A program made the position numbers and the translations under genes. From Eledone cirrhosa (taxonomy: Eukaryota), in NCBI GenBank assembly GCA_964016885.1, contig OZ024753.1, positions 4,526,001 to 4,590,000 of the forward strand: DNA of 64,000 nucleotides. The letters run 5' to 3'. Below, piece by piece: positions 12,521 through 61,271 of this stretch. How positions within the stretch are numbered: the stretch's first letter is position 1; each line of letters opens with the position of its first letter. Below the pieces are notes generated by a model. The model saw only the letters and a list, made by a program, of their open reading frames with translations. It made no database searches and had not been told where the DNA came from.

Positions 12521-12550
12521 AGAATCAAAGAACTGTTCAAAACATGATTG

Positions 12551-12597
12551 TGCTTACAGCTGTTTCCTCCAAACCGAGGTTTGGATTCTTCGGAGCA
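12551..12597 (-). ncRNA. Type I hammerhead ribozyme motif, family A left arm
   Basis: Exact reverse complement of 12821-12867. Confidence 0.75.
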
Positions 12598-12820
12598 ATT
12601 TATTAATGCATGGACAGTTATATGACCTCCTTTTCAGCCGAGAGACATACCAATACATATTCAAACATTGATACATATTCAAACGATGTGTGTACTGCCA
12701 CTCTAAATTCTGTAATGAATGTTGACCCACAATGTTTGAATATGTATCAATGTTTGAATATGTATTGGTATGTCTCTCGGCTGAAAAGGAGGTCATATAA
12801 CTGTCCATGCATTAATAAAT

Positions 12821-12867
12821 TGCTCCGAAGAATCCAAACCTCGGTTTGGAGGAAACAGCTGTAAGCA
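12821..12867 (+). ncRNA. Type I hammerhead ribozyme motif with CCGAAGA core variant
   Basis: tgct-CCGAAGA-a-tccaaacc/tc/ggtttgga-g-GAAA-cagctg-TA-agca: stem I, stem II and palindromic stem III. Confidence 0.75.
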
Positions 12868-15800
12868 CAATAATGTTTTGAATAGTTCTTTGATTCTTAT
12901 ATTTCATATAACTACTCTGTAAATCATCTGATGTTTTTACATTGAGCTACTTAACTTACTGGTAATAAGGTAGTAATACATTACTGCCTACCACTATTTA
13001 GGGTGTGTGTAAAATACTTACAACTGCTTAAGGTTTTGTGTTTACATAACCATAAATAGTATAACTAATACTATATATATATATATATATAATATATATA
13101 ATATATATATATATATATATATATATATATATATATATATATATATATATATATATATATATATGAGAATCTTCTGTCTGAACTGTCTGTACGTAGATCA
13201 GTATTGAGAATACGTGTTTAATATTATTTATTAAATATACAGTGGTTTATATCCCAAGTCGCACATCGTTGAAAGAGTTTCCTTTTTATATTTCATACTT
13301 GTGTATCGAAGTTTGGTTGGATATTTTGTGAGGAATATGTAAAAACATATACAAGACTGTAACATATGCTTTATCTACTCCATATCTCTCTCTAACCTGT
13401 GAAATGAATTGATAACTGAAAGGTATTTTCATGTCAATTATCTGGAAAGATTTCGCCACAGTGTTCTGATTATATGCAGCATGTAACAAAAATCCCCACT
13501 CGGATGTGAACATTTTAATAGGCTAATGATTAATTTCCTCAGGTTAGCTGTAACCATGACAGATAATGAACATTATCCAAAGAATCTTCTTGTTTTCATC
13601 CACGGTCTGTAATGACAACTGCCAACTTTAATTGGATAAGGGGAGACACAAGCTTCCTAGTGCAGAATTAAACGACATCTATTAACTGCATATAAACAGA
13701 CAAACAAAATATCATTGCATAATATCAAATTATAAAACCAAGTGTACATAACAAAATAACTTAACAAAACCTCCTCCAGCGCTTATTAGCATAACTTTCA
13801 AATTCTATAATGTGATTGATGGGAATATTTTGTCTCAAAAAATAAAATGCAAAAAATATATATAAAGGCTGTTTGAACGCACTCACACGCACGTACATCC
13901 ACATGCACTTATGTTTAAAGGAAATCGCTTTTATTAAAATACAAACGGCTAATTTTTAGGACACTCACTGAGGCATTGAATCGATTAGTAAATTACATGG
14001 GCTGAGTAGAATATAGGAAATATTGAAATGGCAAATGAAATACTTAAGCGATTTAATTTCTTTTTCACCTTTTTCCCTTCATTTAAATATGACAGTGTTG
14101 TAAAGATTATTTTATATTAGCTTTAGTAAGACACTTCTGATGAGAGAATGGAGATTACTTCCATCACACTTCATCCTGTCTAAAACTCACTGAGCTAATA
14201 GTTAATGCTTGTCACGTATAGTTGAGGCCTTTATTGATAAATGCAATTTACATTTAGAAATATTTTTTTACATGTTCAGTTTTTCATTTATTTATGTAAT
14301 TATTTATTCGATGCTATTTTTTTAAACGTTTTCTTTTTTTATCTCATTCAGATTATTCATGGCTGTAGTTAACAAATCTTGAATAGATGAAATACTTGTC
14401 AATATTGAGATCGTTCCTGAATATATGTGAAAAATATCTGTTCATTGAAAGTCATTTAAGAAAGATTATAAAATTTCTATGATGGAATAATGTAATTAAA
14501 TAGTTTAGGAAATCTGATTGTATTTAGTGTTTTATAAATACGACCATTAAACTGGGTTCTGTTTTACTTTAGGTGTTATGTGAAAAGGATAAACTTTCCA
14601 AAGATTTACATGTTCTCTCTCTCAATCTCCTACACACAACATACACGCATTCGCAAATATATATGCATAAGCATATCTATAAAATCCAGTTACAGTCTCT
14701 CCAGTAGTTCTGAAAATATATCAAACAGGGATAATTACGTACCAAGTGGTATTAGATTCAAGCCTCTTCTCACTCTCTAACTTTCTATTTCACCTTTATT
14801 TCTCATTCTCTCTTCCGATGTAGGACTAGTTTCTGAAACATAACATCTGATTTCCTACTACATCAGGCGTTAAACTAATATAATTCTTCGTTGTACTATG
14901 ATGTTTGCTCTTCTCTTTCTGTTTACGTTTTACGTATTGATATATATATATATATATAAATATGTATGCAGGTATATGTGAAAGTCTGTGTGTATATTTT
15001 GATATTAGGGATTTACAGTAACAGGAACATCAAATATATAGTTGATTTGCGGTTAAAATGAGCATGTACGGGTTTCGGCCAATGTGTATGGCATAAAGTG
15101 TATGCAAACGACACGTCCCTGCAGAACACTGTTGAAAATTGTCCAACATTTTCTGAGTGTATACGTATATAATTGGGTTTTATACCTGAAACATAATATT
15201 TTCATATATTTATCGCGTTATCAAGATGTACATATTTAACAGTCACTTCAACAGATGAAACTTGTATTGATCTTATTATATTTAGTAATGGTTTGTCTTT
15301 TTATAATTTCCACATATTGATCTAGATGTGTTTGTTGTTTCTTAGCTGTTGGCAATAAATCTCTTTTAACTGCACCAAACTACTTCACAATCTTTTAAAT
15401 ATTAATATTATCTTTTTCTTTAAGATTCACAGTTTTCTGTTTTTCTTTCGTTTTTGTTATAATTTCTCTTCATAACTAGAGCCATCATATGAATGATTCT
15501 CGTTGTTTCTGTTTCAAGTAATGAACTTTATTTAACACTCATATATCTTATTTGCATAATATATGATCTGAAATTTAGGCGTTTGGTGTTTTAATTCATA
15601 TATATATATATTGCCTCTGGCGATATTGCTGGTGGGAAAAATTTTCAGATTTAGAGGACCACAGTCACTTCTACCACAAGAAGCGGGAACATCCCAAACC
15701 CACATGGTTACAAGCATCACGAAACCACTTATAACTTTGATGAACAGATTTACGTAACCAAACATATGTATATACGCGTATATATATATGTCCATATACT

Positions 15801-16793
15801 GCGCTCCACGTGGGGTGTAACTAATAAATATATATTTATTCCACGCACCATCTACTTAAATTTGGCTGACATCTATTGTTGGTAGTTTAGTAAGAGGGAA
15901 AAGAAATCGTTTTGCATACGCAATATTTAAACGTAAATGATATTTTACTGGAACCCTTATTTATCTATCATTGACCGATTCTATGATATTTAGAACTGTA
16001 AAGAGACTTTAGTTAGAGTATACACTGTATTATTGCAACATTCGTGCTCGCTATAATACATCCAACGAGGTATATTACTTGAATAAGAAATATACCTTGT
16101 TTTCACACAATGTTTGCAGTGGATGGATGAAATACGCTCACCACTATAAAAGAAACATATTATTTACAAACACACTTTAGAGAGATTAGCGATTGTTTTC
16201 GGTAGATATTACAGCTCTGGTATTTAGTTCTCGCTCTAGAAGATTGTCAATAGTTGAATACGTTTATTAAACATAATTTAATCAACAACTCTAATTGAAT
16301 ATAGATGCAACTTTCTAGTCATATTTCATCATTTTCATTTCATCCAAACTTAATTTGACTATGATAAGTTGTGTAAACAGATTTTCTGTTGAAAACAATC
16401 GATGTGAGGTATATTTGAAAACAAATAAGGAAAAAAACAGAATTGTATTAAATATTCATTGAGATTCTTTAGAAAGTTGAATGTATTAATACTTCAAAAC
16501 ATTATAGAGATTTTATCGTAATATAACACGTATTTATTTTATTTTCTATGCAATAACGTTACGTGCCTTTTAATTAAAGATTATTTAGGGTAGCTACAAT
16601 CTAGATAATGACATTATATGCATCTATTGTGCTTATGCATTTAATTAAAAACACCGCAATACTAGATACCTTGTTGTGGATTCATATCTTTCACGTACAA
16701 AAATGTAATATGAAATTTTATAATATAAGCGAATCACTGCAAAGAGCGTTTCTAGATTCGCAGTTATAGAATATCAGATAGTCGACAAATAAT

Positions 16794-16975
16794 TGTTTCT
16801 ACTTTTGGCCCAAGGCCAGCAATTACCCAGTGTATTACTGGTACTTTATTTTATCGACCCCGTAAGGATGAAAGGCAATGTTAACCTCGGCGGGATTTGA
16901 ACTCAGAATGGCAAGGGCCGTAACTCAATGCATCAAAGCATGGCGTCCGACCCTCTACTGCCAATCCAAATGGCC
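16794..16975 (-). mobile_element. Meta/MESC-core tRNA SINE
   Basis: Near full-length copy with TSD gtcgacaaataat (16781 and 16976). Confidence 0.92.
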
Positions 16976-60079: not shown

Positions 60080-60326
60080 ATGACAATATAAATATATATA
60101 TATGTGTGTGTGTGTATGTGTGTGTGTGTATATGTGTGTGTGTGTGAGTGTATGTATATATGTATGTATATATTTGCAATCACAGTTTGGTAGAATATTA
60201 TGTTGCGTGGGTTTAAGAAATTGATAGGTTTATAGCAGATTTTAAAAGTACGAGTTTTACTATATTTAAACAGAGGTAGGCTTAATACTTGGAAGTTCTG
60301 TCCTTGTCGCTATTGAAAATATGACA

Positions 60327-60499
60327 TTGGTAGAGGCTCGGATGCCATGCTTTGACGCATAGAGTTACCGCCCTGCCATTCTGAGTTCAAATCCCGCCGA
60401 GGTTAACTTTGCCTTTCATCCTTACGGGATCGATAAAATAAAGTACCAGTAATGCACTGGATAATTGCTGGCCTTGTGCCAAAAAGTAGAAACAATTAT
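60327..60499 (+). mobile_element. Meta/MESC-core tRNA SINE
   Basis: Matches family. Confidence 0.92.
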
Positions 60500-60781
60500 A
60501 TTATTTAAACAACTCGATTAATAATAGTTTAATGAATTCTTGGTTTTATAGGCTAAAACTGCGAAAATGTTTATTTCTAAATCCTGTCGATGTCAATGTT
60601 GCTTTTCATCTTTTGTAGTCGATAAAATATTTTAACTGTCAAATATCGATATCGATATAATTGACTACATCAATGAAGACGCTGCCCAAAATATACCCAC
60701 TTTCCAGTATATGAAGCCAATCAAATATTGAACCAAAATATGAAATGTATATTTACCAACTGTCCTCTCAAGTACCTAATG

Positions 60782-60915
60782 TCTTCTACTTTCGGTACAA
60801 TATTGAAGGAAGAGGAAAGTTGATTAAGTCCTCCAACTGTTTCACTGGGACTTTATTTCATTGACCCTGTAAGGGGGAAAGGCAAAGCTAACCTCGGCAG
60901 GATGTGAATTCGGAA
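60782..60915 (-). mobile_element. Old diverged Meta/MESC-core SINE
   Basis: ttgaccctgtaagggggaaaggcaaagctaacctcggcaggatgtgaattc. Confidence 0.7.
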
Positions 60916-61067
60916 CATAAACACATATAATGCAATGCTGTAAATGAATGTTTCCATTTACTTCCACCATATCCATATCTATACATATATATATATATAT
61001 ATATATATATATATATATATATATATATATATATATATATATATATATATATATATATATATATATA

Positions 61068-61271
61068 GGTACGTTATTCCGGGTTGAATCGGAGGTAACC
61101 ACAGTGAGTAAGGTACTCAATACATTGCAGAGTATAAAAGTTTTAATATAGATGAGATTCTACAGGACTAGAACTGTTTCATTCTTTAAAAATCATCAGG
61201 AATCCTGATTCCTGATGATTTCTAGAGAATGAAACAGTTCTAGTCCTGTAGAATCTCATCTATATTAAAAC
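61068..61271 (-). mobile_element. Family H fold-back insert, second copy
   Basis: Tail 61068-61139; arms 61140-61204/61207-61271; TA on both sides. Confidence 0.87.
61207..61255 (+). ncRNA. Type I HHR motif, family H (mirror copy at 61156-61204, minus)
   Basis: gattc-CTGATGA-t-ttc/taga/gaa-t-GAAA-cag/ttctagtc/ctg-TA-gaatc. Confidence 0.8.

Follow-up and report, generated by a model that had tools for sequence, protein, structure and literature searches.

A stretch of 64,000 nucleotides (nt) from the Eledone cirrhosa genome (positions 4,526,001 to 4,590,000 of the forward strand of contig OZ024753.1, assembly GCA_964016885.1; hereafter the window) contains copies of five repeat families, A, B, C, D and H. 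Window self-comparison and direct reading revealed inverted pairs in which two arms of the same family meet head to head. Each family has two positions, S (short) and T (tail), 47–170 nt apart, at which the outer ends of its arms lie, against (TA)n; only T arms carry the tail. Judged by their motifs, families A, C, D and H are the 3' ends of Hydra-type Penelope-like elements (PLEs), while family B appears to be Neptune-like from the motifs of one copy. The arms found in the window are given below, named after their outer ends; the hot spot is a short interval in which many inner ends accumulate.

12521..12670, minus strand: family A S arm, its end lying in (TA)n and falling short of the most frequent A short end by 8 nt
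12684..13071, plus strand: family A T arm, with a predicted hammerhead motif at 12825-12856 and following bases
17628..17899, minus strand: family B arm, not a tail arm, stopping 6 nt short of S without a microsatellite
17907..18009, plus strand: family B S arm, ending in (TA)n
31964..32020, minus strand: S arm of family C, reaching inwards to the hot spot
32019..32082, plus strand: family C tail-only T arm of 63 nt, with no template in common with its partner
34086..34361, minus strand: T arm of an older family A subfamily, with an extra inner hairpin in the junction (34354-34520)
34650..34804, plus strand: S arm of the older family A subfamily, ending in (TC)n, then (TA)n
49361..49605, minus strand: diverged family C single S arm
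52007..53059, minus strand: family D T arm, with a 113-nt tail
53060..54288, plus strand: family D S arm, with a predicted hammerhead motif at 54140-54172 that continues into the next bases
54313..54503: S+T pair of family C, inserted in the TA tract that adjoins the short end of D; the inner end of each arm is at the hot spot
57221..57415: S+T pair of family H whose arms both stop at the hot spot on the inner side, with a predicted hammerhead motif from 57287
57508..58201: S+T pair of family C whose arms are longer (T arm 57508-57959, minus strand; S arm 57964-58201, plus strand), the T end abutting (TC)n
59403..60017, minus strand: family B single S arm, with an additional 55-nt element piece at 59963-60017
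61068..61271: S+T pair of family H, again with the two inner ends at the hot spot

An earlier note on the window had described these copies as inverted repeats with fixed outer ends and a tail of 70–210 bp on one side. We located the ends where it had placed them, namely the short ends of H (57221 and 61271), C (54503, 58201, 31964 and 49361) and B (18009 and 59403) and the tail ends of C (32082-32084, 54311-54313 and 57508) and H (57415-57417 and 61068-61070); the A pairs (12521-13071 and 34086-34804) and the D pair (52007-54288) were also present. Most copies are indeed inverted repeats, but those at 49361 and 59403 are single arms and the C copy at 31964-32082 has no inverted overlap. The tails are in fact 47–170 nt long, and no B tail occurs in the window: the left B arm at 17628 adjoins 212 bp (17416-17627) of unrelated single-copy sequence, for which no match was found in the other DNA that was fetched. 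Two cases of nested targeting were observed, with C inside the TA tract at the D short end (54288-54313) and H and C sharing a TA/GA tract (57415-57508).

The identity of the families was read from longer copies elsewhere in the genome, in which reverse transcriptase (RT) and GIY-YIG frames lie upstream of the same family ends; frame-carrying arms as long as 5 kb terminate at these S and T ends as well. Family C has an open stretch of 743 residues with RWR, DKT, CxCx5C, CxxC and CxH motifs, and all Hydra-clade motifs tested were present in it (RWK-type, DKT, CxCx5C linker, nuclease CxxC and CxH, no CCHH). RWR, DKT, CxCx5C, CxxC and CxH were likewise present in family A, and the linker and nuclease were found upstream of the ends of family D. 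In family H, one copy has a C-terminal piece of the nuclease 2.4 kb upstream, and beside another copy there is an inverted frame containing the linker. A GIY-YIG-type motif stands directly upstream of the ends in A, B, C and D. The family C protein returned 1303 homologues at E<=1e-10, the top one carrying PF01541, and the predicted structure of its 722-aa frame (pLDDT 90.5) had TERT as best fold match (E=4.6e-8), in agreement with the Penelope identity proposed by the earlier note. A direct Pfam scan of seven frames gave no relevant family and a PDB sequence search nothing relevant. The Neptune-type motifs of family B (Cx2-5CxxC linker, CCHH in the C-terminal nuclease) were recognised by eye in one copy without a full frame (L246). 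The Hydra placement was made by comparing motifs by eye with the published alignment; the clade is characterised by a single frame of RT and C-terminal GIY-YIG with RWR, DKT and CxCx5C motifs (PMC8557442 section 11).

Pseudo-long terminal repeats (pseudo-LTRs) formed by partial tandems, and inverted 5'-truncated copies, were found in C (L131, L132) and A (L241, L244, L246). In these two families the tail is the sequence leading from the pseudo-LTR into the next unit, and in family C the start codon is found 94 nt past T. Further Hydra-type frames belonging to families outside A–H were seen at L244, L254, L203 and L161/L246/L250.

The genome, of 3.0 Gb, is rich in AT and microsatellites. We used an unselected sample of 1,064,000 bases, picked without regard to sequence (the window with its 200-kb flanks and three other 200-kb blocks), and a targeted sample of loci chosen by similarity to a core, tail or upstream piece, plus 40 wider stretches. 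Because each similarity search scored at most the best 40 candidates, the targeted loci lean to young copies; the search with family D gave 9 places. Positions were counted from T on natural reference copies of each family.

On this scale S lies at −170 (A), −47 (B), −80 (C), −113 (D) and −68 (H), giving tails of 170, 47, 80, 113 and 68 nt, respectively. Among arms of the unselected sample that end at most 250 nt upstream of S or beyond it, 43/50 in C, 28/35 in H, 13/16 in A and 17/28 in B end within a few bases of S or T, well above the share of about 0.05–0.06 under uniform placement, so the fixed outer ends claimed earlier are not random. Eight further B arms, members of a related subfamily, end 13–19 nt beyond.

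Raw reads of families C and H, from an organism not shown to be the same species, have the same ends: TA loose ends at S and T were counted 3178 and 7883 times for C in one run and 2647 and 8427 times in another, and 418 and 216 and 572 and 248 times for H in two runs. Joints between opposite strands also occurred in these reads. The fold-backs might still be chimeras of assembly or library preparation, since palindromes beside TA tracts are hard to assemble and one pair with two T ends (L113), flanked by the same sequence on both sides, may be an artefact. Given the independent reads, and given that the arms of a pair usually differ (fully identical in only 13/77 C and 7/29 H pairs, with a median of about 96–98%), we consider this explanation next to negligible.

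TA was found on both sides in 154 of 165 S+T pairs, and the template reads TAT just past both S and T in C and A and just past S in B and D. Moreover, template words are repeated at 7/22 S ends and 5/24 T ends of family A and at 1/31 S ends of family B, as expected from re-priming. In the unselected blocks, the TA tracts at element ends have a median of 14 units, where the splitting of a length-weighted tract would predict 9, and only 112 of 3969 tracts touch the five families. A lengthening of TA by insertion was not retained, as a steeper preference for long tracts explains the longer tracts equally well. Among 153 pairs, six candidates for empty paralogous sites were seen, of which two or three are usable and already have a TA tract, too few to judge.

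The combination of ends within a pair is nearly invariable. After removal of most duplicates (at least two sites are still entered twice), 177 head-to-head pairs comprised 165 S+T, three T+T and one S+S, five with one end elsewhere and three at a locus edge. Thus 165/169 classifiable pairs are S+T (p=9e-44 against 0.5). The unselected blocks alone gave 32 S+T and one S+S, and the sole S+S pair is the family B copy in the window. A first pairing pass had given 153 S+T, seven T+T, one S+S and 17 others, four of the T+T being chaining or neighbour errors; the class windows were widened, the gap narrowed and the chaining changed afterwards. A recount with narrow S and T windows yielded 133 S+T, three T+T, no S+S and 41 unclassed. 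Two T+T pairs, L113 and L241, have the same or a similar flank on both sides, and may result from DNA-level inverted duplication or assembly error.

The junctions between arms, by contrast with the outer ends, are mostly unique to each insertion: the 96 C pairs have 90 distinct geometries and the 34 H pairs 27. Overall, 65 junctions have 1–20 extra bases, 52 overlap, 40 are near blunt and eight have longer inserts. This diversity bears on the idea that the units are small non-autonomous elements copied from a few masters, with inherited ends. Short units are abundant and a few geometries do recur, up to four times in C and five in H, but the number of distinct junctions largely refutes such copying, and the same S and T ends close the long frame-carrying arms; we hold it to be very improbable.

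The arms of a pair are often of unequal length. In the 165 S+T pairs the S arm reached more than 20 nt further 5' in 44 and the T arm in 27, with 94 level; where the difference exceeded 100 nt, the S arm was the longer in 30 pairs and the T arm in 21. Eighteen T arms consist of tail only, and some S arms hold template absent from the partner T arm. Since only T arms carry the tail yet S arms often reach further, the arms are not plain copies of each other, unless deletion followed. This matters for a mechanism with priming at T only, in which the cDNA or an antisense RNA would snap back and be copied, endonuclease or target pairing would fix S, and later deletions at the palindrome centre would make the arms unequal. 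Such a course would account for the S+T pairing, and for the shared variants and length coupling described below, without two active sites; it fits the 94 level pairs, and self-priming (PMC3846280) and, for the tail, endonuclease-mediated resolution (PMC8557442) have been suggested in print. It would, however, need a one-sided deletion in 44 of the 165 pairs, 30 of them above 100 nt and young pairs included: in the family D pair of the window the arms are identical at 660/661 positions, whereas the S arm is 282 nt longer (53061-53342). Moreover, the repeated words at the S ends of family A resemble initiation, not termination. A single priming followed by snap-back seems to us unlikely.

The two arms nevertheless appear to stem from one template, as pointed to by shared subfamily variants and, in C, by a shared length class. 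At subfamily-variable columns the arms of one pair mismatch far less than arms of different loci (3% against 37% in C, 10 against 36 in H, 22 against 46 in A and 18 against 34 in B), and C arm lengths are coupled (20 pairs both long, 68 both short, eight mixed). Alternatively, two RNAs from the same source locus could be held by a protein dimer whose geometry sets one S and one T. Some pairs do differ at two or three variable columns (2/77 in C, 2/15 in A, 3/12 in B), and a dimer is predicted for the lizard protein (PMC11167929). In addition, collision of a T-primed enzyme at S was not supported, as shortened T arms stop at S in 4/25 cases against 4.8 expected. Two RNAs would nonetheless leave the strict one-S-one-T rule and the coupled C arm lengths without a simple explanation, and we find this arrangement rather improbable.

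Inner breakpoints had been said to vary. They do so at the base level, but not freely: 28/49 C arms stop 124–143 nt and 24/34 H arms 124–137 nt upstream of T, that is, within a hot spot of 14–20 nt. The summed contig depth of one public run rises about tenfold at the C hot spot, a value that is not a copy number; a single-base pile of reads sits on an AATT word, likely the restriction site of the library, and restriction-site-associated DNA depth was therefore not used. The hot spot overlaps initiator-like words. An extra G was found at the junction in 9/9 H arms starting at one A and in 8/16 C arms, with the reservation that the partner arm could be the source of six of the nine extra G bases and that the rows include duplicates; T runs longer than the template were found in 13/77 junctions. 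Both are as expected when an enzyme runs off a capped 5' end. The hot spot is likely the RNA 5' end, probably a promoter start inside the pseudo-LTR, and in Penelope the transcription start and promoter do lie within the pseudo-LTR (PMC2377424). Short hot-spot words repeated two or three times at the inner junction (L024:1470-1500, L103, L105) suggest slippage at the template end. A splice acceptor at the C hot spot was rejected, as 35 inner ends go 3–4 bases past AG, and so was a family A hot spot at 316–330 nt (7/15 unselected arms), which is absent in targeted copies and may be an alignment edge.

Type I hammerhead motifs, a feature of PLE pseudo-LTRs, are predicted in several families. A hammerhead descriptor matched the sense strand of A, D and H (1, 1 and 0 of 500 shuffles matching, respectively) and gave no match in C or B. 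Family C folds into a three-way structure whose core variant is mostly unpaired: in its upstream core (e.g., window 57682-57693) C3/A8 is unpaired in 41/55 matches and U3-A8 paired in 11. Rfam returned no hammerhead, only microRNA-like hairpin matches below the gathering score. Cleavage as the cause of the outer ends was rejected, the predicted cuts preceding S by 17 nt in C, 26 nt in H, 43 nt in A and 109 nt in D; nor do the predicted cut sites coincide with the inner hot spots. In the raw reads, H sequence returns after 74–78 nt over the hammerhead (L256:7598-7676); these tandems of about 75 nt, of which none was found in the fetched DNA, point to possible arrays of a retrozyme-like unit ending at about S.

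Taken together, the copies are truncated PLE insertions in (TA)n, and we consider it probable that both sides of the cut initiate target-primed reverse transcription on one RNA, at the two sites S and T. The GIY-YIG domain would nick both strands of the TA tract, and each 3' end would prime after pairing with the RNA at S or T through roughly 3 bases. Both cDNAs would extend towards the 5' end of one RNA molecule, which requires strand displacement, and would either end at random points or continue off the 5' end of the RNA, likely the promoter start in the pseudo-LTR, producing the C and H hot spots. The two cDNA ends would finally be joined head to head through short pairing or a few added bases, with filling-in by the host. 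Priming from each side of the cut at a separate, defined RNA position, as the earlier note had proposed, is the best-supported model from the genomic copies, given the S+T pairing in 165/169 pairs, the template held by S arms only and the slippage repeats at both ends in family A; snap-back with central deletion stays its rival.

Several observations weigh against this model. H has a single T, not TAT, after S, and no peak of ends occurs at the other TAT words inside the C and A tails. Slippage repeats are absent from 185 C, 67 H and 9 D ends and from 14 B tail ends. Three T+T pairs exist, two of them with like flanks on both sides. One count that favours the model, namely that among C and H pairs in which a single arm is shortened and its partner reaches the hot spot the shortened arm is T in 19 and S in three, has an inflated ratio, since shortened S arms are harder to detect (60-nt arm). 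The coupling of arm lengths is only weakly visible among 16 unselected pairs (p=0.025) and is not seen in the 25 core-picked pairs, variants common to both arms could stem from gene conversion between them, and the signal of collision at S is missing. Among three C and four A read-through copies, no long copy starts at its upstream pseudo-LTR hot spot. Finally, for PAc, the Poseidon element of Anolis, the in vitro start sites are the same for both strands (PMC11167929), whereas S and T are paired here one per side.

A broader version may be entertained tentatively, and we regard it as doubtful: two-ended priming on one RNA would be obligate, a paired enzyme would use telomerase-like 3-base alignment and slippage, copy to the capped RNA start and lengthen the target TA, and this would be the general origin of the PLE unit of inverted repeat plus tail.

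Other repeats in the window include about a dozen copies of a SINE (short interspersed element)-like repeat of 150–220 bp (1176-1263, 4399-4589, 16761-16968, 18774-18912, 27524-27704, 30590-30754, 41833-42057, 45241-45614, 47140-47321, 48199-48419, 60326-60509 and 63296-63523, with a partial tandem at 45311-45602). A 37-bp minisatellite of 6.4 copies (39063-39298) and three short perfect hairpins (4033-4095, 23295-23340 and 26417-26469) showed no link to the five families.

The feature is real, the element and its insertion are of a known kind, and the copies provide unusually clear genomic evidence on an open mechanism. The inverted unit with a one-sided tail (PMC8557442, PMC3846280, PMC2377424) and two start sites (PMC11167929) are already published for PLEs, and the origin of such units is named as an open problem (PMC8557442). 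Our literature search, with subscription papers outside its scope, found no count of PLE end pairing and no application of twin priming to PLEs, nor did it find the strict S+T rule, the long tails, the inner hot spot or slippage repeats at the ends. The rules seen here, by which each event has an S end and a T end, both arms stem from one template, either arm can be the longer and copying halts at the likely start of the RNA, make the origin of the PLE unit directly testable. Short PLE hairpins are, moreover, common in the Eledone cirrhosa genome and easily mislabelled as miniature inverted-repeat transposable elements or microRNA hairpins.

The families resemble the Hydra clade, which has an octopus member in the supplement of PMC8557442, in the single RT and GIY-YIG frame, the RWR/DKT/CxCx5C motifs, the putative hammerhead motif and the (TA)n targets. 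The available part of that report gives a PLE tail of 30–40 bp, against 68–170 nt in A, C, D and H and 47 nt in B, and contains no counts of end pairing or inner breakpoints. The canonical PLE unit (Penelope of Drosophila virilis, PMC2377424; Pen2a_Av, PMC3846280) likewise has head-to-head inverted arms, a tail at one end, partial tandems and a pseudo-LTR promoter, but the tail is described there as optional, whereas one S and one T is nearly a rule here. Hammerheads on opposite strands have also been described in PLEs (PMC4209133). In the canonical element the tail lies inside the frame, while in families C and A it lies 5' of the start codon; unlike in the canonical unit, no target duplication is readable in (TA)n.

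A further parallel is LINE-1 twin priming, which Ostertag and Kazazian are said to have described in 2001, and in which the second DNA end reportedly primes internally on the same RNA to give an inverted piece, the second site being variable and the pieces barely overlapping. In the families studied here the second site is fixed and the arms usually duplicate the same stretch. Non-LTR retrozymes are tandem direct repeats, each with a hammerhead (10.64898/2026.07.22.740005), and are not matched by these inverted pairs. A biochemical likeness is offered by PAc, in which both strands are cut and extended in vitro from two internal start sites that bound the tail, hammerhead cleavage being unneeded (PMC11167929). 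No homology to the cut DNA is reported for PAc, whereas S and T lie mostly at TAT here, and the available text does not address the inverted unit. The genomic rules link the two in vitro start sites to the two sides of the target, and the slippage repeats at start sites echo telomerase, the sister enzyme.

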